Source: Deinococcales bacterium
Lineage (GTDB): Bacteria > Deinococcota > Deinococci > Deinococcales > JAAFIG01
Direction: 5' to 3'
Assembly: GCA_031418155.1 (NCBI GenBank)
Contig: JANOWZ010000417.1
Location: 1 to 15,931, forward strand
Length of the DNA stretch: 15,931 bases
The position numbers were made by a program, and so were the translations under genes. Numbering within the stretch: position 1 is the stretch's first letter; each line of letters begins with the position of its first letter. This document shows positions 1 to 12,338 of the stretch, piece after piece. The notes beneath the pieces were generated by a model. It was not told the DNA's origin and did not search any database. It worked only from the letters and a program-made list of their open reading frames with translations.

Positions 1-86
1 AAACTCAAACGCTCCTCGGCGGCCAAATTGTCAATCGCTTCAAGGCTCGAGGCTGCGAGCGGTGGCATTGGCTTGGCGACGGTCAT
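1..86 (-). CDS. Partial CDS (N-terminus only; continues beyond window start). Hypothetical protein, probably the next gene of the gvp operon. Translation begins MTVAKPMPPLAASSLEAIDNLAAEERLS
   Basis: The minus-strand frame is open from an ATG at 86..84 to position 1. That ATG overlaps the TGA stop of the upstream GvpL/F gene (ATGA at 83..86). The same coupling pattern recurs at four other junctions in the window. Only 28 residues are visible, which is too little to assign a family. Confidence 0.35.
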   Translation of the reverse strand, partial: MTVAKPMPPLAASSLEAIDNLAAEERLS

Positions 87-868
87 ACGATCGCCTCGAG
101 TTTCGGTTCTGCATTGGCAAACGAATACGGCGCGAACGGACCAGACAATTCTGCACGCATCGCCAAACGATCCGGCCAACCGGCAAGCTCACCCAGCAAA
201 AGCGATTCAGAAATCGAATCCAACAACACCGCACACTCGAGCAAACCCGGATTCGCAGCCTGAGACGCAGGAATTCGCTCAAGCACTTTGATTTCCGTGA
301 CCGCATCCTCGAGCCTCGAGAACGCCTCGCGGCGCAAATCGGGAAGAACTTTTTTAACCTCAACCTCGAGCGCATCTTTCAATTTGCGTTTGAACAAATA
401 CTGACGGCCCGGCGTCGAACCGTTCAACTCGGCCTGCAAATCATCCAACTCAGGATTCGCCTCGATCAAACGTGGCTCGAGTTCGTCACGGTCCACCCAA
501 ACCCGCACCGTGAATTCACGCTGACCGTGCAAGGATTTCAAACGATCAATCATGATTTGCGATTCACGCTCGAGCAAAATGTTCAAGCTTTCTAAATCCG
601 GCACGACCGAACCGAAACGCAACGGAATCACACCAGCATCAATAAAACTCGAGATCGTGCGGTCATGCAAAATCGCTTTACCAGCCACCCAATTTGGATC
701 TTCAACATTCTCGGTCAAGAGTTTTGAGAAATCATCGGCGTTCACAGCCTCACAAATTGCGCCAAGTTTCGCGTAAGAATGAACCTCGATTTTTCCACCA
801 CAAACGCCCTCAAGATTTTCTTCTCGAGCATCGGGAACGGTGAACCCATAGACGTAAAAACCCGTCAT
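83..868 (-). CDS. gvpL: Gas vesicle protein, GvpL/GvpF family
   Basis: The translation (MTGFYVYGFTVPDAREENLEGV ... VHSYAKLGAICEAV ... VIPLRFGSVV) has the conserved N-terminal YVYG and downstream RFG pattern of GvpF/L proteins. The ORF track starts it at 886 (MGGGAIMTGFYVYG). The ATG at 868..866 overlaps the gvpG TGA stop (ATGA), so it is the more likely start. Confidence 0.8.
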   Translation of the reverse strand: MTGFYVYGFTVPDAREENLEGVCGGKIEVHSYAKLGAICEAVNADDFSKLLTENVEDPNWVAGKAILHDRTISSFIDAGVIPLRFGSVVPDLESLNILLERESQIMIDRLKSLHGQREFTVRVWVDRDELEPRLIEANPELDDLQAELNGSTPGRQYLFKRKLKDALEVEVKKVLPDLRREAFSRLEDAVTEIKVLERIPASQAANPGLLECAVLLDSISESLLLGELAGWPDRLAMRAELSGPFAPYSFANAEPKLEAIV

Positions 869-1182
869 GATCGCGCCGCCGCCCATTCCGCCTTACGCGC
901 CTCAATCACTTCAATCTGCTCGAGCAACTCCGCCTCGAGGTCCATGAATTCATCCTCGGTGATGCGCCCCGCATCCAAATCCGCACCGAGCGAGGTGAGT
1001 TTGTGGATCAACGGTTTTTCATCCAGCAAGGTTTCTTCGGCCTGATCCGCGATTTGTTCCGCCACCCACAAGATCGGCCCCAGAATCAAATTCAACGGGC
1101 CGAGCAATTCCATGCCCTCGGTGCCAGCGCGAGCCATCAGCGTGAACCTCTGGAAAATGACTGTCTGGCGAGGGCTTGCCAT
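865..1182 (-). CDS. gvpG: Gas vesicle protein G (GvpG)
   Basis: A roughly 100 aa protein with the GvpG-like pattern ELLGPLNLILGPILWVAEQIADQAEETLLDEKPLIHKLTSLGADLDAGRITEDEFMDLEAELLEQI. The ATG at 1182 sits at the centre of a perfect 20 bp palindrome. An alternative internal start (MELLGPL, about 1113) is possible. Confidence 0.65.
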   Translation of the reverse strand: MASPRQTVIFQRFTLMARAGTEGMELLGPLNLILGPILWVAEQIADQAEETLLDEKPLIHKLTSLGADLDAGRITEDEFMDLEAELLEQIEVIEARKAEWAAARS

Positions 1183-1216: not shown

Positions 1217-2011
1217 TCATTCCTCGTCATCCTCCCAACGCACGGTCATTTCGGAAAACGTGAATGGGGGCAATGGGCCGGTCAAACGAATCGTTAACAG
1301 GTCGTGTTGGTCGTCGAATTCGTGCAGTGCGTTTTCGACTTTCTCGAGTTCTGCTTGCGGCATCAGCACGGACAGGTTGGCGACGACCCCTTCGGGCAGC
1401 GTTCCGTTGGAGATGCCTTCGACGAGTCCGTTCAGTCGTTTCTCGAGCGCGGCTCCGACGTAATCGCGGCGTTTGAGAATCGCGTTTTCCATCATTTGTC
1501 CGAGTCGAATTCTGGCGTGATGGTCGGCGCTGGTGGCGATCTTGTCGCGCAGACTCGAGATTTCTGGGTGCTCACTTAAAACACGTTCGATGACTTCGGC
1601 CGGGTCGGTCCAGGTGGCACGAACGCTGAGTTCGACACGACCATCGACGGCATCGAGTTTGGCTTTCAACTCGTCGGCTTTTTGCGTCAAGAGTTTGCGT
1701 TCGATCACCTCTAAACTCGGACCGATGGTGTTGAAGCGCACCGGCAGAACGGGCGTGATCGCCATGATGGTTTCGACAATCGTTTTGTGGGCCAGTAAAT
1801 TCTTGCGGGCGATGCTGTAACGGTCACTCGAGTTCGCACTGAGGACCACGATCAAATCGCCGACGCGCAAGAGGAATGGTTGACCGGAATTCTCAATCGG
1901 TTTTTGCTCGAGCACGTCCGGTAAATCTGGGTGATTGCGGGCGACGGCGTAGAGATAAAACGGTCCTTCAACGGTTGCCAAATCCGGTTTTACGAGCGTC
2001 GCTTGCGTCAT
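1217..2011 (-). CDS. gvpF: Gas vesicle protein, GvpF/GvpL family
   Basis: The translation (GPFYLYAVARNHPDL ... VLPVRFNTIGPS ...) has the GvpF/L hallmarks. The ATG at 2011 overlaps the stop of the upstream gene (ATGA at 2008..2011). Confidence 0.8.
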   Translation of the reverse strand: MTQATLVKPDLATVEGPFYLYAVARNHPDLPDVLEQKPIENSGQPFLLRVGDLIVVLSANSSDRYSIARKNLLAHKTIVETIMAITPVLPVRFNTIGPSLEVIERKLLTQKADELKAKLDAVDGRVELSVRATWTDPAEVIERVLSEHPEISSLRDKIATSADHHARIRLGQMMENAILKRRDYVGAALEKRLNGLVEGISNGTLPEGVVANLSVLMPQAELEKVENALHEFDDQHDLLTIRLTGPLPPFTFSEMTVRWEDDEE

Positions 2012-2952
2012 GCGTTCACCGCTTTCGTGACGCGCACTCCGAGGCCATGCGTGCTTGCGGCCAGCAAATCTCGGGCCCAGGCGAGGTCGCGCATTTCGTC
2101 CGCCGCATTCGGGTTGTTCGGGTTGCGGTCCGGGTGACGTTCGAGCGCCAGTTTCTTGAAGGTTCGTGCGAGCGTATCGCCATCCACATCGTTATCGAGT
2201 CCGAGCGTTTTGCGGGCGCGATCCAAATCCAACGTGTTCGGCGTGATGATCTCGAGGCTGGCGAAGGCGAAGGCGGGTCCGGGGGCACCGATGCGCCAAG
2301 TGATCCGATCCTCGAGTTTCGCATCCAATTCCGTGATCGCATTTTCCATCGCTTCGAGTTGATCGCGTTTGACAAGGAGCGCCAGGTTGAAGGCGCTGTC
2401 TTCGCCGTTGCGTCCAACATTACCAACCTCGAGCACGCTGTCTTTCAGGCATTGGATTGCGAGGTTCAGCAGCGTTTCGCGTTCGCGTTCAAGTTGAGTC
2501 CCGATCATCATTCCGATTCGCGCCTGATCCTCGGTCGTGACCGTGCCACGCTCGAGCAATTCTTGACGGAACGCGCCGACATCTTCTTGAATAGCGGCGC
2601 GTGCAATCTCATCCTGAACATTCCAACGGGCCGCCAGATTGATTTGCGCCGTGTCCTGGAGCCGAGCGAGTTCGGACAAGAGCGTGTCCTCGTGCAATTC
2701 GAGTAGTTCGATCACCCGCTCACGGTTGGGCAGGTTCGCACCGAGTTTGCAGGGCAAGATGCTCGAGGCATTGACGCTGTGAATCGCGGTTTGATGCTCG
2801 AGCAGAATTTGTGTGAGTTGTGCAGGATCGGATGGCAGATTGATGCGTCCCTCACCGATCAACGCGGCGAGCGGTCCAACCCGCACGACCTCGAGCCCTG
2901 GAGACTGAATTTCTGTGGCATCGGCGCTGTAAATTCCGTAAATCGTGGTCAT
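2008..2952 (-). CDS. GvpF/L-family gas vesicle protein fused to a C-terminal DnaJ J-domain
   Basis: The N-terminal roughly 240 aa are GvpF/L-like (MTTIYGIYSADATE ... HSVNASSILPCKLG). The C-terminal roughly 70 aa (TLGLDNDVDGDTLARTFKKLALERHPDRNPNNPNAADEMRDLAWARDLL) form a canonical J-domain with the HPD tripeptide. Confidence 0.75.
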   Translation of the reverse strand: MTTIYGIYSADATEIQSPGLEVVRVGPLAALIGEGRINLPSDPAQLTQILLEHQTAIHSVNASSILPCKLGANLPNRERVIELLELHEDTLLSELARLQDTAQINLAARWNVQDEIARAAIQEDVGAFRQELLERGTVTTEDQARIGMMIGTQLERERETLLNLAIQCLKDSVLEVGNVGRNGEDSAFNLALLVKRDQLEAMENAITELDAKLEDRITWRIGAPGPAFAFASLEIITPNTLDLDRARKTLGLDNDVDGDTLARTFKKLALERHPDRNPNNPNAADEMRDLAWARDLLAASTHGLGVRVTKAVNA

Positions 2953-2968: not shown

Positions 2969-5119
2969 TCATCGCTTGCTGGCTTTAACCTCCCCGAGTG
3001 CGTTCTCGAGGTCGGATTGTGTTATCTCGAGGCTAATGCTTTCGTTGTCACCAGTTTCTTTCGTTGAATTAGGTATCGAGGCCACAATTGCGTTCTTGGC
3101 GAGGTGAGCTTGCAAGACCAGCATTGCCGCGCGTCGCACCAACCATTCGAGGTCGGCACCGCTCCAACCCTCTGTCTTTGCGGCCAGGGCATCCAGATTA
3201 AGCTCGCCAGCCGTCGCACGACCCCTCAAATGCACACCGAGGATTTCTGCCCGGTCCGATTCACTTGGCAATTTGAACTCGAGCACCTGTTCAAAGCGCC
3301 CAGGACGCAGTAAAGCCGGATCGAGCGATTCGGGCCGATTCGTTGCGCCCAAAATGATCACGTTCCCAAGACTCGAGATGCCATCCATTTCGGCCAGGAA
3401 TTGACCAATCACCCGGCTCGAGACGGCATCCGCATCGGCACGGTTCGCCAACAATGCGTCGATCTCGTCGAAGAAGACCACGCACGGGGCGCTGGCTCGG
3501 GCCTTGCGGAAGAGTTCGCGCACGGCCTTCTCGGACTCGCCGTAGTACCTCGAGAGAAATTGAGCACCACGCACGGCGATGAAATTCGCCTCGGATTCTT
3601 TGGCGACAGCCCGTGCCGTCAACGTCTTGCCGGTTCCGGGAGGACCCGCCAGCAAGATTCCACGCGGAGGCTCGAGCCGGAGTTGCGCGAACAATTCAGG
3701 GTGCTTGAGGGGAGCCTCGACCGCCTCGATCAATGCGGCTTTGACCTCAGACAAACCACCGATCTCCGTCCAACTCGCACCGGCAATATCGGATTCGGTC
3801 TCGCGGATCAAACTCGGTGAAACCTCACGCAGGGCTGCACGGAAATCCTCCACGCCAACCTCGAGTTGCAACATTTCCTGCGCACTCGGACCTCGACCTG
3901 AGGCCGTCCACGTTGGCAACTGTGAACGGACGCGGTGCATTCCAGCCTCTCGAGCCAAGGCCGCCAAATCCGCACCGACAAAGCCGTGTGTGATTCGCGC
4001 CAAGTCATCCAAATTCACGTCCGGCATCAATGGCATCGCCCGCGTGTGAACCTCAAGGATTTCGCGCCTGCCTTTTGCATCCGGCGGATTGATGACCACT
4101 TCGCGGTCAAACCGTCCGGGCCGACGCAAGGCCGGATCGAGGTTGTCCGGCAGGTTGGTCGCACCGATCACCACGACCTGACCGCGCCCGCCGAGGCCAT
4201 CCATCAACGAGAGGAGTTGCGCAACGACACGCTTCTCGACCTCGCCCTGAACCTCAGAACGCTTCGGACCAATCGCGTCGATCTCGTCCAAGAAAATAAT
4301 GCTCGGGGCTTTCGCTCGAGCCTCCTGAAAAATTTCGCGCAAACGCTTTTCCGAATCCCCATAAAACTTGCCAATGATTTCCGGGCCAGCCACCGAAATG
4401 AAATGCGCCCGTGTCTCACGCGCCACGGCTCGAGCAATCGTGGTCTTGCCGGTTCCGGGCGGGCCGTACAACAACACCCCTTTCGGAGGATCGATTCCCA
4501 ACTGCTCGAACACCTGCGGATAACGCAATGGCAACTCGACCAACTCGCGGACTCGAGCAACCTCACGCGATAAACCGCCGATGTCCTCGTAGCTTGCGCT
4601 CGAAGAAGATTGGGCTGGAGCTTGCGCCTCGCCGGAATTCTCGAGCGCCAAACGCGACTCGCCTCCGACCAACGCATGCGATCCAGGCTCGATGGATTTC
4701 ACCCGCAACTCCAATACCTTCGAGCCGAACAACTCCACGCGAACCCGATCACCCGCCGTCAACGCACGGTCCTGCAACAACGTCTTCAAATCCGAGATTG
4801 CCACGCCCGCACCAGAAATCACCTCGAGCACCACGCTCCGTGCCAAGACCGGCTCGAGTCTTGCAACACGCACTTTCGCACCGATGCTCGAACCCGCATT
4901 TTCTCGGGCCAAACCATCCAGCAACACGCCACGATCACGGTCCTCGGGTCTGGACGGCAACGCACGAACCGCCGTGCTGCGCTCACCCGTGACGACAATC
5001 ACACCACCGGCACGCACGCCCAAACGCTCGAGGTCGGCAGGGGACAGGCGGGCGAGGCCACGGCCCGCATCACGCGGCGCGGCCTCGGCGACGACGATCT
5101 CGAGGGCATCGATTACCAT
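2969..5119 (-). CDS. CDC48/VAT/p97-like AAA+ ATPase (N-domain plus two AAA modules)
   Basis: A CDC48-type N-domain ([21 protein letters not shown]) is followed by two complete AAA cassettes. D1 has [16 protein letters not shown] and [23 protein letters not shown]2 has [18 protein letters not shown] and [21 protein letters not shown]. The ORF track begins at a TTG (5131). The first ATG is at 5119. Confidence 0.85.
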
Positions 5120-5233
5120 GTTGGGTTCCAATTGCGGTTCTGTCGTAGGGGCATCGTGTAATGCACGCTGTTGCGTGACGCATGCCTCGCCCCTACATTC
5201 GCGTTCGCCGAATCAACAACTTGCATCAAACCC

Positions 5234-5725
5234 TCAACCCGCGAACGGAACCATCAACTCGAGGATTCCGTTCTGATAAGACTTCGTGAATTCACCTTTG
5301 ACGGCTTTGGAAAGCTCGAGCGTCTTCGCGTACTTGCGTGCCGCTGCACCGTTCGCTTCAAGCTTCAAGGTTTGTCCCTCGAGCGTGACTTGAATGCTGC
5401 TTTCAACCGCGCCTGGAAGTTCGGCAATCACGCTGTAATGTCCGGTTTCCTCTAGCACGTCAACCATCGGTTCGCGCACGGGTTCGACGCTGGGGTTGCC
5501 ACCGTTGTTCGCCATGTTGCCGAATGTGGAGACGGTCGGTTCACCATTTAAGTTCGTGCGAATGTTGACCCCGATCACACCCTCGAGTCCAGATTTTGTC
5601 GTGAAATTCTGCGTGCCGCCTTCAGCGTTTCCCGCCTGTTTTTGCAATTCTTGAACGACCTCGAGAAGATTGTTGATACCGGAAAAAATTCCGCCAAGTC
5701 CGCTGTTGTCGTTGGTTTTCGCCAT
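5234..5725 (-). CDS. Hsp20/alpha-crystallin family small heat-shock protein (GvpH-like)
   Basis: The alpha-crystallin domain is recognisable: VDVLEETGHYSVIAELPGAVESSIQVTLEGQTLKLEA ... KSYQNGILELMVP. An AGGAGA ribosome-binding site lies about 9 nt upstream of the ATG. The N-terminal region is Gly/Asn-rich. Confidence 0.75.
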   Translation of the reverse strand: MAKTNDNSGLGGIFSGINNLLEVVQELQKQAGNAEGGTQNFTTKSGLEGVIGVNIRTNLNGEPTVSTFGNMANNGGNPSVEPVREPMVDVLEETGHYSVIAELPGAVESSIQVTLEGQTLKLEANGAAARKYAKTLELSKAVKGEFTKSYQNGILELMVPFAG

Positions 5726-5756: not shown

Positions 5757-5812
5757 TGCGAAAAGGGCGAACGTCATGTGATACATGCTGAGCATGCTGA
5801 GTTCGCCCCTAC
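5757..5812 (-). terminator. Terminator-like or attenuator hairpin between the small ORF and the hsp20-like gene
   Basis: On the minus-strand transcript an 8 bp GC-rich stem GGGCGAAC...GTTCGCCC encloses a loop containing the palindrome AGCATGCT and the tandem CATGCTGAG x2. It is followed directly by TTTTCGC. Confidence 0.35.
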
Positions 5813-5830: not shown

Positions 5831-6121
5831 TCAGTACTCGAGCACCATTGATCCGCCTGATCCCATCGACCCCCGCTTTGGTGCGACCCGAGGGGAAATC
5901 ACTTCGGTTTCGTTTTGCAATTCAATGATTCGCGCTTCAAGTTTCGCCAGCGTTTTTTCACCGTCACTCACGCGCTGCCGCCAGTCGGCCAATCCTCGCT
6001 CGAGGCGCTTGCGTTCGGCGGTGAGTTGGTAGATTTGCAGGTACGTGCGGCTTTCAGATTTGGGCAAGGCCGAACGTCGCAAGCTCGAGGGTGCCAAAGC
6101 AGTTTTGCGTGGGGTGGTCAT
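5831..6121 (-). CDS. Hypothetical small protein (96 aa, basic N-terminus, predicted coiled-coil), gvp-operon member of unknown family
   Basis: A strong AAGGAG ribosome-binding site sits 7 nt upstream of the ATG. Its position between gvpN and hsp20 is consistent with operon membership. No family is recognisable by eye. Confidence 0.55.
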   Translation of the reverse strand: MTTPRKTALAPSSLRRSALPKSESRTYLQIYQLTAERKRLERGLADWRQRVSDGEKTLAKLEARIIELQNETEVISPRVAPKRGSMGSGGSMVLEY

Positions 6122-6235: not shown

Positions 6236-7240
6236 TTACAACGTCATGGCGCGTGATGGTTTGCGTTCACCACCGGCAAGCACGGGCTCGCGGATCTCGA
6301 GGATTTCCGTGCGTTCTGCTGTACGCTCGAGTGGTTTGATGGTGCGGGCTTTCGGCAAGAGGTGCAGCATTTTGGCAACCGCTTGGCTCGAGACGGTATG
6401 GCGTTCGTGTTCGTCGCTGATGCTGCCGGTCAGGACATCCAAAACCACGCGCTCGAACTCAAGGTTTCCGGCGCTGACTTCAAGGTTGCGGACGCTGGCT
6501 ACTCGAGCGATTTGCAGTGCGGCGCGAACGCTGTGTTTGATTTTCAGTTTGCTTTCGCCACGCACGCTGGCGACCAGTTCGGTGATGGCGAGCGCATCTT
6601 CGAGTTGCAATCCTGATCGGGCGGCAACAATTCCGCCTTGCGTCTCGAGGTCGAATCCCTCTAAACGCATGGTCACTAGGCGATCACGCAAGGCTTCTTG
6701 CGCGAGGTGCACTCCGGCGTAATCTTCCGGGTTGCTGGTGAAAATCGCTCGGAAGTCCGGGTGAACTTTCATGTACCCGCCCTTGCCCGCCGCGCTCGGG
6801 TAGATCAAAATACCTTCCTCGAGCACCGGCAACAGGACGTTGTTCGCTTCGGCTTTGGAGCGTGTGAACTCGTCATAAACGAGCGTGTAACCGTTCTTGC
6901 AGGCAATCGTCAGTCGTTCATCGACCCAGGAATTGCTGGAATCTTCGTCCACTTTCAAAACGCTGTGGATGTAGTTGTCCACGACTTTGCGGCGGCGAAA
7001 TCCGTTGTTCGCGCCCAGCAAATTGCTGGAACCAAACTCGTTGTCACCGGCGATCAGCACCATCGGGCGGCCCAGTTTCGTGGCGACATGCAACGCGAGT
7101 GTGGTTTTTCCGGTGCCGCTCGCGCCTTCAAAGTTCACGCCGAGGCCAGCCTCGAGATATCCCAAAGCGCGTTTGGTCAGGTCTTTGACCTGCGCGGTTT
7201 CAACGAAATCTTCGCGCTGTTTGGTGCTGATTTGACTCAT
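6236..7240 (-). CDS. gvpN: Gas vesicle protein GvpN (MoxR-like AAA+ ATPase)
   Basis: FVETAQVKDLTKRALGYLEAGLGVNFEGASGTGKTTLALHVATKLGRPMVLIAGDNEF matches the conserved GvpN N-terminus and Walker A closely. Walker B VYDEFTRS is present. The ATG overlaps the upstream stop (ATGA at 7237..7240). Confidence 0.9.
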   Translation of the reverse strand: MSQISTKQREDFVETAQVKDLTKRALGYLEAGLGVNFEGASGTGKTTLALHVATKLGRPMVLIAGDNEFGSSNLLGANNGFRRRKVVDNYIHSVLKVDEDSSNSWVDERLTIACKNGYTLVYDEFTRSKAEANNVLLPVLEEGILIYPSAAGKGGYMKVHPDFRAIFTSNPEDYAGVHLAQEALRDRLVTMRLEGFDLETQGGIVAARSGLQLEDALAITELVASVRGESKLKIKHSVRAALQIARVASVRNLEVSAGNLEFERVVLDVLTGSISDEHERHTVSSQAVAKMLHLLPKARTIKPLERTAERTEILEIREPVLAGGERKPSRAMTL

Positions 7241-7983
7241 GCGCCACTCGAGACGTAACCGTTATCGGAAAGTTTGATTTTGCCGCTGGCGACAAGGCGT
7301 TTGAGCATCGTGGCAACTTCGCTTTGATCGAGTTTCAAGCCTTGTGCGAGGTCCTCGAGTGACAATCCTGGAACGCTCGAGATGGTGCGCAAGACGATGT
7401 GCTCGCGGCGTTTCTCGACTGGGTTCAGCACGGCAACGCCGACGGAAAGAGCGCCCTGCGGCATTGGTTTGGCGGCAGGCTTGCTGGCTGGACGGGCCGC
7501 ACGCACGACTGGTTTGACATCCGATCCGCGCATTTGACGGGCGAATCCCTCGAGTTGTTCACGCATGACCGCACGTGCGGTGGCGTGAGCCTCGAGCAAT
7601 TGACCTGTTTCGGCACTGAGCGTTTCGCGTTCACTGGCGCGTTTGCTGGCATCACGGCGGGCGCTCGAGATTCGTTTTGCACCTTGAGCGGCAAGTGTTT
7701 CTTGCACCGTGGCTTTGCGTTGGTTGTTTTCGTGTGCGCGATCAGTTGCGCGTTGAGCGCCCTGGGTGCTGCGAATCTCCGCGATAATCTCGAGCTTCGC
7801 ATGAACGGCTTGCGCTTGGGTTGCAACCTCGTTTGCACGGGCGATGTGTTCAACGGCGCGGATGGTACTTGCCGCCACGAATTCTTCGCGGCGTTCCTGA
7901 TCAAAATTCAGGCGGTCGCTGGCGGATTTGTTCAGTTTCTCGCGCAGTGCGGCTCCAGCCTGGTCATCTAATGTCATCGGCAT
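7237..7983 (-). CDS. Hypothetical coiled-coil protein with KPAAKP-type linker and C-terminal winged-helix-like domain; gene directly downstream of gvpA (possible GvpC-like structural or regulatory role)
   Basis: It is Ala/Glu/Arg/Gln-rich and predicted helical over roughly the first 150 aa. A VKPVVRAARPASKPAAKPMP linker follows. The C-terminus HIVLRTISSVPGLSLEDLAQGLKLDQSEVATMLKRLVASGKIKLSDNGYV resembles a winged-helix (LexA/ArsR-like) fold. The ribosome-binding site is AAAGGTGA. Confidence 0.55.
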   Translation of the reverse strand: MPMTLDDQAGAALREKLNKSASDRLNFDQERREEFVAASTIRAVEHIARANEVATQAQAVHAKLEIIAEIRSTQGAQRATDRAHENNQRKATVQETLAAQGAKRISSARRDASKRASERETLSAETGQLLEAHATARAVMREQLEGFARQMRGSDVKPVVRAARPASKPAAKPMPQGALSVGVAVLNPVEKRREHIVLRTISSVPGLSLEDLAQGLKLDQSEVATMLKRLVASGKIKLSDNGYVSSGA

Positions 7984-8196: not shown

Positions 8197-8415
8197 TCAG
8201 ACTGCTGGTGCGGCGACCGTCGAGGTCAAACCGATGGCTTCGGCGTACTTCAAGTACGTCTCGACCGATGCAGCAACGACGCGGGCTTCGATGGCGATCA
8301 ATTCGATGCCGACCAGTGAGACGCGGGCGAATGCGTCGATGACGATGCCTTTGTCCAGGATGCGGTCCACAACTTCGCCGAGGCTCGAGGAGTTCATGCT
8401 TTTTTCGACTGCCAT
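8197..8415 (-). CDS. gvpA: Gas vesicle structural protein GvpA
   Basis: [64 protein letters not shown] is a near-consensus GvpA (72 aa). The ATG at 8415 is preceded by a GGAGGT ribosome-binding site. The ORF-track entry 8197..8592 is an in-frame upstream extension with no support. Confidence 0.95.
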
Positions 8416-8840
8416 ATGTACCTCCGTAAAATTTGAATTCTTGGTTCTTGCCCAGGGATAAATGGGGCGATGTTGGGAAAAGAGGTTCAAGAATTCTTTT
8501 GGGTGTTTTTCCGGTTCTTGCCGGTGTGTGAATGGTGCACCCTCGAGCAAGGTTTGAGTAAGCCTCTTCTGGGTATTGGGTATACCCCCCATTTGGGTAT
8601 GCCCGTTTGGGGCTGGTCAAGTTGCGGTCTCGCGCCTACTTTGTTTGGACTCGGAACTGTGGCAAAACTTGTGTGATGCACAGTATTTGTGGGTTCCGCT
8701 ACAGTTTGGTGGTTTGAAAGAATTTTGCAAGAGATGGTTCGGCAAACTGAAGCTCTGGCAAGGGCGAAAAGTTGAACAGGGCTTCTACAAGTTCAGGCCG
8801 ATAAGTTCCAGGCCAGCAGCACAACGAAAGGGGGCGTGAG
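8416..8840. promoter_or_regulatory. About 425 bp divergent regulatory region between gvpA (-) and the acidic E2-like gene (+)
   Basis: It holds no convincing ORF. It contains the GGGTATACCC palindrome plus two more GGGTAT half-sites (about 8570..8606), direct repeats GGTTCTTGCC (8443..8452 and 8513..8522) each near GAATTCTT, and TTGAAC hexamers on both divergent sense strands. Confidence 0.5.
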
Positions 8841-10661
8841 TTGAGTACACGAGGATTCGGCGACACAGACTGGACCGACGGGTTTTCTCGACCGTGGGAT
8901 GTTTCCGTGGCATCATTTGAAGCCATCGAAACCGACCTGGACGAGTTGATCGACCCGGACGGGATCGAGTCTGCATTGGCCATCGACGATCAGGGGAATT
9001 TCCTCGCCTGGATGGATTCGGAACGCGGGATGGCTCCAGTGCCGCTCGCGGCTTCAGAGTTCGAGGCTCCGGTGGCGCAAGATTTGAACGCGCCAGCGGC
9101 GAAAGTGTCTAAGGGTTTCAAACGGTTCACGCCGCCAGTTCCGGTGGTTGAGCCCAGCGAACCGACGACCTATCAGGCCAGCAGCGAGGCGATTGATGCG
9201 GTGTTTGCCGAACTCGAGGCGAGCGCCAAAGCCAGCACAGAACAGTCAGATGCACCCGAGGTTGAGGCGCAGGCAGATGTTCAGGTTCAGGCCGATTCGG
9301 ACATTTATGCTGAGGTCCATTCTGAAGATCAAGACGATCAGGGTGCGGTTGAAGCAAAGGCCAAGAAGCCAAAAATTGATCCGATGGCGCTCGAGGATGC
9401 GTTCGAGAGTGTGCCGTTTGACCTTCCAGAGTTGATGGGCGAACAGTCTGGCACTGTACTCAGTGAGCAACCTGTCGCGCTCGAGGGTGAAGCGGAGGCG
9501 GTCGAAGCTCAGGCAGAAGTTGAACTCCCAGCAGTTGAAGCTCAGGCAGAAGTGGTCGAGGTTGAAGTTCCAGCAATCGAAGCTCAGGTTGAAGTTGTTG
9601 AGGCCGAAGCAATTGTCATTCCCGAGGGCGAACCGGTCGAACCCGTCGCCGCCTGGAAGAAGCCCGTCAAACCCAAAAAGCAACCCAGCGAATTTGGCAT
9701 CGACGAAGTTCCACTCGAAGCGCTGCTCGAGATTGCGAATACCGAGGCCGAAGACGAAGAGAATCATGCCGAGGCCGAAGCCGTCACGATTGACCTGCAA
9801 CCCGAGGCGGATGCGCTTGCCGCAGTTGGCTTGGGCGAAGCAAGCCTTCAGGAAGGCATCATGGCCGCTTACGAGATGGAGGGTGCGCCAATCACCGATT
9901 TGAGCGCATTGATCGAGAGCAGCAAAGCACTCGAGGTTTCAACCGCCCGTGAAGCGGTCAACGAACCGGTCGCCACACCCGTTCATGCCGGATTTGTTGC
10001 TACTGCTGAAAGCAATGAATCGCCAGAGGCCGTGCTCCAGGCGCTCGAGACCAGCGTGCTCGGATTTGAAACACCAGAGATTCAACCGCTCGATGCAGAA
10101 CTCGAAACGGATTCCAGCGTCGCGGCAGTGCTGGCCCCAGAAATCATGAATGTCCCGATGATGCCCGCGACGACCACGTTGCGCCGTCACTTCGACGCGA
10201 CCGACCTGATCGAAGCGCAGATTCGTTTGCGTCACGCACTGCGCCCATTGGACGTTTCGATGGTCTCGCTCTTGGGTCGCGCCGCCGAACGTTGCGCCCT
10301 CGAGTTGCCGGGAATCAAAACGATTGCACTCGCCGAACTCGGCGACAATGGGATTGCAGTCACCGCCAAGATCAAAGCCGTCGAAAGCTTCCGCGAGATG
10401 CTTGCGGGCATCAGCGAGGGCTCGAGCGGCGTTCGTGGCGACCTGAGCGTCGTTGACATCAGCGACCTCGGCTTGGATGAAGTGGTCTTGCCACTCGCCG
10501 GACCGCACCTCTTGCTGACCCGTCTTTCGCCACACCCGGACAAACCGGGTCGCATGCGCGGCACGGTCTCTCTCTCTGGCCTCGTGAACCTTCGCGCTGG
10601 CGCATCATTCCTCGATCAGGTCGTCTCGAAACTCGAGGCTCCGATCACGCTGATGGTCTGA
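8841..10661 (+). CDS. Acidic tandem-repeat protein with a C-terminal 2-oxoacid dehydrogenase E2 acyltransferase (CAT-like) catalytic-domain homologue lacking the catalytic His/Asp
   Basis: A TTG start is preceded by an AAAGGGGG ribosome-binding site. The N-terminal roughly 430 aa are highly acidic and low-complexity with EAQAEV-type repeats. The C-terminal roughly 170 aa align to the E2 catalytic domain: RRHFDATDLIEAQIRLRH against HFDKTDITELEAFRK, VVDISDLGLDEV against FTISSIGGLG, and TVSLSGLVNLRAGASFLDQVVSKLEAP against ISLSFDHRVIDGADGARFI. In that alignment DHR is replaced by LVN. Confidence 0.7.
   Translation: MSTRGFGDTDWTDGFSRPWDVSVASFEAIETDLDELIDPDGIESALAIDDQGNFLAWMDSERGMAPVPLAASEFEAPVAQDLNAPAAKVSKGFKRFTPPVPVVEPSEPTTYQASSEAIDAVFAELEASAKASTEQSDAPEVEAQADVQVQADSDIYAEVHSEDQDDQGAVEAKAKKPKIDPMALEDAFESVPFDLPELMGEQSGTVLSEQPVALEGEAEAVEAQAEVELPAVEAQAEVVEVEVPAIEAQVEVVEAEAIVIPEGEPVEPVAAWKKPVKPKKQPSEFGIDEVPLEALLEIANTEAEDEENHAEAEAVTIDLQPEADALAAVGLGEASLQEGIMAAYEMEGAPITDLSALIESSKALEVSTAREAVNEPVATPVHAGFVATAESNESPEAVLQALETSVLGFETPEIQPLDAELETDSSVAAVLAPEIMNVPMMPATTTLRRHFDATDLIEAQIRLRHALRPLDVSMVSLLGRAAERCALELPGIKTIALAELGDNGIAVTAKIKAVESFREMLAGISEGSSGVRGDLSVVDISDLGLDEVVLPLAGPHLLLTRLSPHPDKPGRMRGTVSLSGLVNLRAGASFLDQVVSKLEAPITLMV
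9500..9620 (+). repeat. Imperfect tandem DNA repeat (about 3 units of 33 to 42 nt, core GAAGCTCAGGCAGAAGT) encoding VEAQAEV(V/E) repeats
   Basis: GAAGCTCAGG(C/T)(A/T)GAAGT recurs at about 9506, 9540 and 9582. Confidence 0.6.
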
Positions 10662-10689
10662 TGATGACGAACTTTCATCAATTCTCGGC

Positions 10690-10758
10690 TGTGCTAGACG
10701 CGAACAAGAATTTCTCGAGCAATATTTTAAAAATTATCATGCAGTGGAAAGGAAACAT
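10690..10758 (+). promoter_or_regulatory. AT-rich segment (TTTCTCGAGCAATATTTTAAAAATTATCATG) upstream of the HD-GYP gene; candidate promoter
   Basis: The local AT-richness is unusual in a window of roughly 58% GC. It lies directly upstream of the GGAAAGGAAA ribosome-binding site and the ATG at 10759. No exact -35/-10 assignment is made. Confidence 0.3.
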
Positions 10759-11403
10759 ATGAGTGATCTCTTCAGAGACGGTTTCATTGACGAGATCGTT
10801 GATGCCTACGTCAAGGACTTCGGCGACCGCGTGGAAAACACCGACCGCTTCGAGCACTACTCCCCAGGACATGCCCGTCGTGTAGCCGAAACCAGCGTCG
10901 CCATCTGCGAAGGTTTGGATTTCGAGGAAGAAGACATTCGCGTCGTCAAAACCGCCGGGTTGCTCCACGACATCGGCGAGGTCATTCAAAAGCACGCCTT
11001 CTACGGCGCACCTCGAGTCTTGACCCCAGAAGAAACCGTTGAGATGTGGCAACACAGCCTGATCGGTGAACGCGAAGTGGCACGTCGCGGTTTTGGACGC
11101 AAAGAACAGTTGCTGGTGCGTTGGCATCACGAACGCTGGAACGGTCAGGGCTACCCGGACATGCTGTTCGGACCCGACTTGCCGCTCGGTGCTCGCATCA
11201 TCCGTTTGGCGGACACCTGGGATGCGCTGACAAACGACCGTCCGTGGCGTTTGGCGATGTCTGAAGCCGATGCGCTCGAGGAGATCAAACTCGGTGCAGG
11301 CATGGAGTTCGATCCAGAACTCGTCGGCTTGTTCCTCGAGTTGCACCAATGCGGAGCCTTGATCCCAAGTGAAAACTTCGCCATCTCAGGAGGCAAACGA
11401 TGA
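10759..11403 (+). CDS. HD-GYP domain protein (stand-alone cyclic-di-nucleotide phosphodiesterase-like)
   Basis: The HD motif (LLHDIGEV) and the HD-GYP signature WHHERWNGQGYPD are both present. The start is assigned to the ATG at 10759, 5 nt after the GGAAAGGAAA ribosome-binding site. The ORF track begins at a GTG at 10744. Confidence 0.8.
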   Translation: MSDLFRDGFIDEIVDAYVKDFGDRVENTDRFEHYSPGHARRVAETSVAICEGLDFEEEDIRVVKTAGLLHDIGEVIQKHAFYGAPRVLTPEETVEMWQHSLIGEREVARRGFGRKEQLLVRWHHERWNGQGYPDMLFGPDLPLGARIIRLADTWDALTNDRPWRLAMSEADALEEIKLGAGMEFDPELVGLFLELHQCGALIPSENFAISGGKR

Positions 11404-12338
11404 GTGGCGTCAAAGAATACGTCGGCGCAGAAGTCATGCTGCTCTCAAAAGTCCTCAAGCTCGAGAGTGTCGCCGTACCCTTCGGTGGACGCAACCCAAT
11501 GTGGCTCGGCTGGTGGATGAAGACTTTGGGCAAGAGCGTGCACATGAACGACCTGTTGCACTTTTCATACATGGACTCGGTCGGCCTGATCGAAAACGAA
11601 GGCTTCTTGTTGGACGGCGACACCCTCGGCGAACTGACCAAAGACATCGGCGACGGCAAGCAACTGACCAACCCAGAACTCGCCCGTCTCGTCCCAATGC
11701 AAGACGCATACTTCTTTGATCAACTTCGTCCACGCATCGAAAAACTGCCAGCCCGTCAAAAAGGTATCGCCATTCGAGCCGGATACAACACCATGCGATA
11801 CGCCCAAGTCATGGACTCCTCGAGATTCGTGAACCTGCGCGTCTCCCTCGACAAAGTCTTCGCCCGTGAAGTCGAAGAGATCAACAAGCGCATCACCTCG
11901 AGCGGCAAAGGCCAAGCGTACATGGAAGAGGCCGGAAGCTTCGTCGGCAACGTTCGCGCCAGCGCCCTGTACATGCAACTGCCAAGCATGGGCGGCTTCA
12001 GCACCGAATACGCTGCGGGCGCACGTCCACGCGGACCACTCGGACGCGAAATCTGGGCACGCGGCCCAAGCAAAACCTGGATGCCAGAACTGAAGGCCGC
12101 CACCAAAGGCACCTTCGGCGACCGCTTCACCTCACGCGAAGCGTACTTCAAAATGGTCTCGGAATTCCTCGAGAAAGCCAACGATTACCCAGTCTGGGTG
12201 TTCAACCTCGAAGAAAGCGAATACCCCGATGTCCTGCGTGCCGTGATGCAGTTCCGTAAGCCAAAAGCCGTGCATCGTTTTGACACACGCGAAGCGAGCG
12301 GCGGGTACATGAGCTACTTCTTGATCGCAGAGAAATAA
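11400..12338 (+). CDS. Dam-like (D12-class N6-adenine methyltransferase fold) protein with a non-canonical motif IV (MQLPS in place of DPPY); translationally coupled to the HD-GYP gene
   Basis: An ATGA overlap with the HD-GYP stop spans 11400..11403. Residue patterns parallel E. coli Dam: KEYVGAEVMLLSKVL against KWAGGKYPLLDDI, VPFGGR against PFVGAG, HMNDLLHFSYM against ADINSDLISLY, and RAGYNTMRYA against NRYGYNGLCRYN. The position expected for DPPY reads YMQLPSMGG. No [DNS]PP[YFW] occurs anywhere in the protein. Confidence 0.5.
   Translation: MSGVKEYVGAEVMLLSKVLKLESVAVPFGGRNPMWLGWWMKTLGKSVHMNDLLHFSYMDSVGLIENEGFLLDGDTLGELTKDIGDGKQLTNPELARLVPMQDAYFFDQLRPRIEKLPARQKGIAIRAGYNTMRYAQVMDSSRFVNLRVSLDKVFAREVEEINKRITSSGKGQAYMEEAGSFVGNVRASALYMQLPSMGGFSTEYAAGARPRGPLGREIWARGPSKTWMPELKAATKGTFGDRFTSREAYFKMVSEFLEKANDYPVWVFNLEESEYPDVLRAVMQFRKPKAVHRFDTREASGGYMSYFLIAEK

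Follow-up and report, generated by a model that had tools for sequence, protein, structure and literature searches.

A CDC48/VAT-type AAA+ ATPase encoded within the gas-vesicle operon of an uncultured Deinococcales lineage, a candidate unfoldase alongside GvpN

The production of gas vesicles has been described as a process with one engine. A current review names GvpN as the sole ATPase and energy source, and the published core and model-organism gas-vesicle (gvp) gene lists contain no CDC48 (PMC9501494). A precedent for an additional ATPase comes from the ArsA type, which, together with Hsp20, is conserved in the gvp clusters of several phyla and has been proposed to energise a step of biogenesis (Castillo and Saier 2010, PMC2963123). 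The subject of this article is another ATPase gene, cdc48, which codes for an AAA+ protein of the CDC48/VAT type and lies inside the gvp operon on a 15,931-nt stretch of DNA from an uncultured Deinococcales lineage (the window; all coordinates are those of the whole stretch). Like ArsA, it is an extra, non-GvpN ATPase, and ArsA co-occurs with CDC48 in the clusters of Desulfobacterota. However, ArsA is a Get3/ParA-type P-loop ATPase, whereas the window protein is of the ring-shaped AAA+ unfoldase type, and CDC48 is not mentioned in the ArsA study (PMC2963123). The protein is intact, its gene is a conserved part of gvp clusters in at least four phyla, and it may serve a chaperone module dedicated to gas vesicles.

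Among solved structures, the best match to the protein is Thermoplasma VAT (5g4f; E 7.7e-188, 629.4 bits). It shares the N-D1-D2 layout of VAT and about 50% identity with many archaeal CDC48 proteins. As in VAT, pore loop 1 of D1 is aromatic (KFYG in the window protein, KYYG in VAT), and so is that of D2 (RYYG), so both rings should be able to thread substrate. It differs from VAT and archaeal Cdc48 in being bacterial and embedded in a gas-vesicle operon, in having no HbYX tail, in scoring below the cut-off of the CDC48 model TIGR01243, and in its D2 pore loop, which in Deinococcales reads YYG instead of WVG. The host lineage is not known to possess a 20S proteasome. The likeness to eukaryotic p97/VCP/Cdc48 extends over the full-length fold, with about 40% identity and intact catalytic motifs in both rings. 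The D1 pore loop of p97 lacks the aromatic pair. Also, p97 works with ubiquitin adaptors, whereas no UBX- or Npl4-like genes are seen in the clusters inspected. The actinobacterial Cdc48-like protein Msm0858 (5e7p) likewise comes from a bacterium and belongs to the Cdc48 kind of type-II AAA proteins, but it is a much weaker match than VAT (465.7 bits vs 629.4), and an assignment to its lineage (Msm0858/Cpa-type) was rejected. A preliminary description of this DNA, made from the sequence alone, had pointed to archaea, Actinobacteria, and a few other lineages as typical homes of such unfoldases; of the archaeal and actinobacterial affinities, the archaeal one is the closer. Two further identities were considered and discarded. 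The anti-phage ATPase IteA scores 225.9 bits against a cut-off of 510 (NF042959), with the D2 half alone covered, and a proteasome activator is contradicted by the missing HbYX tail.

The gene also has a described counterpart to its surroundings. In Euryarchaeota, the Phr/HSR1 heat-shock regulons include both a gene for a small heat-shock protein (sHSP) and one for an AAA+ ATPase, so the same two gene families are functionally linked there (PMC10653856). The Hsp20 of the window best matches an archaeal Hsp20 model, and hsp20 and cdc48 are neighbours in archaeal loci L010, L032, and L048. Unlike the archaeal pair, that of the window sits inside a gvp operon and is joined to a gene for a GvpF/L protein with a J domain (GvpF/L::J). 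The AAA+ ATPase of the euryarchaeal regulon is reportedly of the CDC48 type. The logic proposed here resembles that of ClpB/Hsp104 with DnaK-DnaJ and sHSPs, namely, a holdase, targeting of Hsp70 by a J domain, and threading by a two-ring AAA+ machine. The window protein, however, lacks an M-domain and, with its CDC48 N-domain, falls in the classical AAA clade, and any cooperation with DnaK of the ClpB/Hsp104 kind is suggested by the neighbouring J domain alone.

The features that matter most for the argument are as follows.

2969..5119, minus strand (open frame to TTG 5131): cdc48/VAT-like AAA+ ATPase gene (Pfam, TIGR01243, VAT 5g4f, AlphaFold2 and Foldseek, dN/dS)
4652..5095, minus strand: N-domain (CDC48_N and CDC48_2), residues 13-160 in the 720-aa numbering (Pfam, AlphaFold2)
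3911..4477, minus strand: D1 AAA cassette and lid, with Walker A at 4439-4465, pore loop KFYG at 4358-4369, Walker B at 4277-4294, and sensor-1 and second region of homology (SRH) at 4106-4162
3062..3658, minus strand: D2 AAA cassette and lid, with Walker A at 3620-3646, pore loop RYYG at 3539-3550, Walker B at 3458-3475, and sensor-1 and SRH at 3290-3346
5234..5725, minus strand: hsp20-like small heat-shock gene, directly upstream of cdc48 (NCBIfam archaeal Hsp20 model NF041800, E 2.7e-29, below its cut-off; Pfam HSP20 weak, E 0.0055)
2008..2952, minus strand: gvpF/L with a C-terminal J domain at 2059-2208 and its HPD motif at 2128-2136 (Pfam GvpL_GvpF 2e-24, DnaJ 7.2e-8)
6236..7240, minus strand: gvpN, the canonical single-cassette gas-vesicle AAA+ ATPase (TIGR02640, 312.6 bits vs a cut-off of 266.8; Pfam AAA_5)

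The open reading frame at 2969..5131 is real and codes for 720 aa from a TTG, as first described. However, in database models of the identical protein, the start codon is ATG 5119, four codons further in, and the 716-aa product is likely the true one. The identical protein is also encoded on a 23.5-kb metagenome scaffold in ENA, and the closest genomes are metagenome-assembled genomes of Deinococcales, with protein identities of 97, 73, 70, and 65%. Pfam finds CDC48_N at residues 13-93 (E 6.3e-19; 68.4 bits, cut-off 35.1) and CDC48_2 at residues 114-160 (E 1.4e-6; 28.2 bits, cut-off 22.4), along with two AAA cassettes (E 7.7e-93) and two AAA_lid_3 domains (E 3.8e-26). The TIGR01243 score of 788.7 bits falls narrowly below the cut-off of 802.65 while covering model positions 3-713 of 733, and close relatives are named “CDC48 family AAA ATPase” by NCBI. 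Walker A (GPPGTGKT, at residues 223 and 496), Walker B (DEID), the sensor-1 asparagine, and the arginine fingers of the SRH are intact in both D1 and D2. The catalytic columns are invariant in the alignment of relatives, and the motifs are conserved across the gvp-linked clade. An AlphaFold2 monomer model (pLDDT 83.6), whose N-terminal region is all-beta (pLDDT about 85-90), matches full-length p97/Cdc48 across about 720 superposed columns (Foldseek E 9e-73, TM 0.71-0.73). The protein is therefore confirmed as an intact N-D1-D2 ATPase of the CDC48/VAT type and would be expected to form a hexameric, VAT-like type-II AAA+ unfoldase. It is under purifying selection, with a dN/dS of 0.056 against the 97% relative (L001). 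Its C-terminus reads ..VKASKR, whereas the archaeal homologues in the same scan end in ..YYR, which is an HbYX tail; this tail is missing from every gvp-linked homologue. Since GvpN is encoded separately at 6236-7240, the earlier claim of a second AAA+ machine, with a CDC48-like N-domain and two intact cassettes, has been borne out.

The gene is closely packed with its neighbours. The spacer between hsp20 and cdc48 measures 114 nt to ATG 5119, and the gvpF/L::J gene begins 16 nt past the cdc48 stop codon, which its ribosome-binding site (GGGGAGG) overlaps; gvpF/L::J is thus probably translationally coupled to cdc48. The preliminary description had rightly placed the ATPase between hsp20 and gvpF with short gaps. 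It did not mention the J domain on the downstream GvpF/L, and the conserved unit is larger than it stated, comprising hsp20, cdc48, and gvpF/L::J.

How often the gene sits in gvp clusters was asked from both sides. In a genome survey, one genome per species was scanned with the ATPase protein, and the 80 best loci were searched with the Gvp proteins of the window. The cdc48 gene lies inside a gvp cluster in 14 of the 16 loci labelled bacterial: four from Deinococcales (L001-4), three from Planctomycetota (L007, L020, L031), one from Chloroflexota (L011), and six of the Desulfobacula type (L012, L015, L026, L041, L051, L061). No gvp genes were found near CDC48 in the archaeal loci (0/64). Of the two bacterial-labelled exceptions, L079 clusters with Nitrososphaeraceae and probably comes from an archaeon, and L005 (Thermomicrobiales) has hsp20 as its sole conserved neighbour. 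A second protein search, from a Desulfobacula copy, led to a large Desulfobacterota family with the same “CDC48 family AAA ATPase” annotation. Further Desulfobacterota homologues were embedded among gvp genes in all five contigs examined, including that of the cultured Desulfotignum balticum. In the reverse test, metagenome contigs were scanned with GvpA, and the count was limited to loci whose sequence extends 8 kb or more beyond gvpA on the downstream side (n = 22). All 22 carry gvpN, and 17 carry a CDC48 homologue. Wherever CDC48 occurs in the metagenomic loci, it is co-oriented with gvpA (23/23), and GvpN is present in every CDC48 cluster complete enough to judge. CDC48 is, then, a conserved component of gvp clusters, co-oriented with gvpA, in at least four phyla: Deinococcales, Chloroflexota, Planctomycetota, and Desulfobacterota.

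The ATPase and the gvp genes also have a common past. In a neighbour-joining tree, the gvp-linked proteins, together with L005 and L018, form one clade with a bootstrap of 100/100, apart from the bulk of archaeal CDC48, and the Deinococcales subclade is equally firm (100/100). Across 14 clusters, the pairwise identities of CDC48 track those of GvpN (r 0.96), GvpF/L::J (r 0.93), and Hsp20 (r 0.97), with absolute values that are nearly equal. The single clade and the co-varying identities therefore speak for a long shared history of cdc48 with the gvp genes. Relatives with the ATPase gene elsewhere and their gvp genes contiguous were looked for, and the relatives instead carry the gene inside their gvp clusters. 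A recent lineage-specific insertion is ruled out by the synteny in four phyla and the co-divergence with GvpN; the genome and GvpA-seeded surveys exclude it even though the samples are biased. The functional rather than accidental association suggested at the outset thus gains support from the synteny comparison and the phylogeny, from the co-divergence with GvpN, Hsp20, and GvpF/L, and from the GvpA-seeded loci.

The company the gene keeps is that of chaperones. An Hsp20 homologue is encoded directly upstream of cdc48 in most gvp-linked genomic loci. Directly downstream, GvpF/L::J with its HPD motif (at residue 273 in the window protein) is found in L001-4, L011, L012, L015, L026, L041, L051, L061, L081, L082, and L086-88, and its gene often overlaps the cdc48 stop by 4 nt. 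The fusion occurs in Deinococcales, Chloroflexota, and Desulfobacterota; Planctomycetota carry a plain GvpF/L at that place. A J domain kept on GvpF/L in three phyla would imply that an assembly factor of the gas vesicle recruits Hsp70. In Desulfobacterota, CDC48-bearing gvp clusters hold one to three Hsp70 paralogues, a two-domain ArsA-type ATPase, and DnaJ-type zinc-finger proteins (CXXCXGXG), which with CDC48 make up what is, by prediction, a whole chaperone suite within the cluster. ArsA is present in 14 of the 22 metagenomic gvp loci. The chaperone genes of the Desulfobacterota clusters are located as follows.

L081: 17568-22109
L082: 1-4049 and 19333-21045
L087: 17419-22130
L088: 19212-22133
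L086: 798-1151, 9442-9936, and 13013-13957

The hsp20-cdc48 adjacency is also seen outside gvp clusters, in Thermomicrobiales and in Archaea, with the Hsp20 homologue upstream of CDC48 and no gvp genes.

L005 (Thermomicrobiales): 9547-9780
L010 (archaeal): 9594-9923
L032 (archaeal): 9576-9893
L048 (archaeal): 1991-2311

Because the adjacency occurs in gvp-free loci, the pair would be older than its use in gas vesicles, and it looks like a unit of holdase and unfoldase that gas-vesicle clusters later took up. In the neighbour-joining tree, another branch lies closer to the gvp clade than the archaeal hsp20-linked CDC48 proteins do.

What could such a machine do for a gas vesicle? The role proposed, to which we give a probability of roughly 0.55, is that of the ATP-driven unfoldase or disaggregase of a chaperone module dedicated to gas vesicles. 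GvpA, GvpJ, and GvpM form inclusion bodies when they are made without chaperones, and GvpF binds GvpA (PMC9501494). An overload of GvpA causes proteotoxic stress in Escherichia coli (PMC12848028). In the proposed scheme, Hsp20 would hold the shell proteins of the GvpA/J/M family, which are hydrophobic, rich in beta structure, and prone to aggregate, and GvpF/L::J would bind these clients through its GvpF/L part and recruit DnaK/Hsp70 through its HPD motif. The CDC48-like ring would take hold of the clients by its N-domain and thread them through the aromatic pore loops of both rings. In this way, subunits could be pulled from aggregates, misassembled ribs, or collapsed vesicles and be refolded and used again. 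The ring would act without a proteasome and alongside GvpN, which would keep a separate role. The sequences themselves show the architecture, the motifs, the synteny, and the selection. What we infer is the identity of the clients, the joint work of the ring with Hsp20, DnaK, and the J-domain protein, and a reaction that rescues and recycles subunits and does not destroy them.

Several points weigh against this proposal. The role is proposed from sequence and synteny. The gene lists of Halobacterium, Anabaena, Bacillus megaterium, and Serratia have no CDC48, yet vesicles assemble (PMC9501494); since these model systems make vesicles without it, CDC48 is not universally required. Nor is it a core gene, being missing from 5 of the 22 adequately long metagenomic gvp loci. 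The micro-synteny in metagenomes varies, with Hsp20 directly upstream in 8 of 23 loci and a J-domain GvpF/L downstream in 7 of 23. Within the clade itself, L005 keeps its hsp20 neighbour and has no gvp gene within 10 kb, and L018, an archaeal 5-kb contig, shows none either. The sampling of loci relied on similarity to proteins of the window itself, which biases the frequencies, and the tree (702 columns) was built by neighbour-joining and not by maximum likelihood.

One could also consider that the ATPase acts on the assembly factors and not on the shell. As a segregase, it would remove scaffold proteins such as GvpF/L, GvpG, and GvpK from the nucleation complex or from ribs that are still growing and recycle them, with turnover of the factors brought about by NSF/p97-like disassembly. 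Activity of the p97/NSF type is the classical function of this fold, which the protein matches, and GvpL and GvpN have contacts with almost every accessory Gvp protein (PMC9501494). Several GvpF/L paralogues always co-occur with the ATPase, which appears translationally coupled to one of them. However, the Hsp20, J-domain, Hsp70, and zinc-finger neighbours fit misfolding and aggregation better than the cyclic disassembly of a complex, and no UBX- or SNAP-like adaptor gene is seen in the clusters inspected, so we regard a segregase as unlikely. In archaea, VAT/Cdc48 feeds the 20S proteasome, and by this token the ATPase could unfold Gvp proteins, or a regulator, and hand them to a protease, removing vesicles or their precursors when buoyancy must fall. 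The sensor kinases and response regulators that flank clusters imply that buoyancy is regulated. Such a degradative role is very doubtful, though, given the missing HbYX docking tail in every gvp-linked member, the lack of a protease gene in any cluster inspected, and neighbours that are holdase and foldase components and not proteolytic ones.

It is just as improbable that hsp20-cdc48 is an ordinary heat-shock pair that hitch-hikes with gvp clusters and has no job specific to the vesicle. The adjacency of the two genes in L005, L010, L032, and L048, and the shared heat-shock regulons of Euryarchaeota mentioned above, would suit a passenger of this kind. A passenger would, however, sit poorly with a within-operon position kept across four phyla and on the gvpA strand in every CDC48-bearing metagenomic locus, with a 4-nt overlap or 16-nt gap to the gvpF/L gene, with a divergence equal to that of GvpN, and with an operon that has no terminator-like site within it. 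A dedicated unfoldase or disaggregase of the chaperone module is therefore the role that we prefer. More tentatively, this module could be seen as a mobile, self-contained proteostasis system that travels with many bacterial gvp clusters. It would be made up of Hsp20, a VAT-like unfoldase, and a J-tagged GvpF/L, joined in some lineages by Hsp70 paralogues, ArsA, and zinc-finger proteins, and the CDC48-like ring would either keep amyloid-like subunits of the GvpA family competent for assembly or dismantle collapsed vesicles for reuse.

The gas-vesicle operon of the window runs on the minus strand in the order gvpA, a 248-aa open reading frame (ORF), gvpN, a 96-aa ORF, hsp20, cdc48, gvpF/L::J, gvpF/L, gvpG, and gvpL/F. 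The members not listed above are the following.

8197..8415, minus strand: gvpA, major shell protein, 72 aa (Pfam Gas_vesicle 3.2e-14; ATG 8415 behind GGAGG)
7237..7983, minus strand: 248-aa ORF between gvpA and gvpN, with a C-terminal MarR-like winged helix (Pfam MarR_2 4.4e-6, residues 192-236)
5831..6121, minus strand: 96-aa ORF between gvpN and hsp20, conserved in Deinococcales relatives only (56-94% identity in L001, L003, and L004)
1217..2011, minus strand: second gvpF/L paralogue (Pfam GvpL_GvpF 2.3e-49)
865..1182, minus strand: gvpG (Pfam GvpG 9.5e-15)
83..886, minus strand: third paralogue, gvpL/F (Pfam GvpL_GvpF 6.9e-35)

The mechanical reading frame around gvpA (8197-8592, minus strand) is 131 aa long; the real gene is the 72-aa one that starts at ATG 8415, with the ribosome-binding site GGAGG 5' of it. 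The 248-aa ORF occupies the usual place of gvpC and has an N-terminal part rich in Ala, Glu, and Arg. It is weakly conserved, in Deinococcales relatives only, with 29-33% identity to its counterparts in L003 and L004. The 96-aa ORF has no Pfam or NCBIfam match and was left uncalled as a gene in one public annotation. In a sequence comparison, neither ORF showed similarity to the unannotated Desulfotignum ORFs at the same positions. Divergent from gvpA, three genes on the plus strand (8841-12338) code for a 606-aa protein, an HD-domain protein, and a 312-aa protein without an assigned function. The 606-aa protein is very acidic, with repeats rich in Glu, Ala, and Val and no family match, and the HD-domain protein resembles c-di-GMP phosphodiesterases. 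The trio also adjoins gvpA in L003 and L004, and it may belong to or regulate the gas-vesicle cluster.

The spaces between the genes hold a few features of their own. A terminator scan found fewer sites than expected by chance and no terminator-like site between the operon genes on the minus strand, and there is no Rfam match anywhere in the window. The 114-nt spacer between hsp20 and cdc48 folds modestly better than its shuffles (z -2.1). On these results, a regulatory RNA or a terminator in this spacer was rejected. Among relatives, the spacer aligns poorly except for a short motif, GTAGGGGCGA, which is also present in the hsp20-cdc48 spacers of L001 and L003. In the window, the motif occurs on the minus strand at 5187-5196, at 5803-5812, and, with one mismatch, at 8630-8639, which makes three matches against 0.53 expected. 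It opens a hairpin in two spacers; the one after the 96-aa ORF (GGGCGAAC-N28-GTTCGCCCTTTT) is followed by a T-run. The motif may represent a repeat element, or it may act as a partial terminator and in this way set the ratios of expression.

The gas-vesicle cluster of this uncultured Deinococcales lineage is complete (window; L001-L004 and L083-L085), and a full-text literature search, judged on titles and abstracts, found no paper with a title or abstract on Deinococcales gas vesicles. No description of a gvp-linked CDC48/VCP was found in the full-text literature either; most subscription journals lie outside its coverage, so that an earlier mention is possible. The co-mentions of Cdc48 and gas vesicles are few, and all concern unrelated haloarchaeal proteins. 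The findings suggest that gas vesicles have a chaperone system of their own, one that was not found described in the literature.

An open question in the field is how the very hydrophobic GvpA stays soluble and enters a growing, gas-filled shell. Many environmental gvp clusters, a large share of them, encode a second AAA+ machine that differs from GvpN in mechanism, always together with GvpN and usually with holdase and J-domain partners; this points to a quality-control step that can be tested. Gas vesicles are also under development as acoustic reporter genes. Their heterologous expression is limited by the proteotoxicity of shell proteins (PMC12848028), and many gvp clusters do not work in E. 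coli; the 23.5-kb cluster of Desulfobacterium vacuolatum (FWXY01000008:1268-24724) made vesicles there (PMC10344784 and its supplement). If the proteostasis system is indeed mobile and self-contained, it would account for the failure or toxicity of many such clusters in other hosts when the full set is missing. A proteasome-free bacterial VAT would then gain a defined physiological client. For AAA+ biology, this would mean a bacterial VAT/Cdc48 that works on a probable, defined client with no proteasome.

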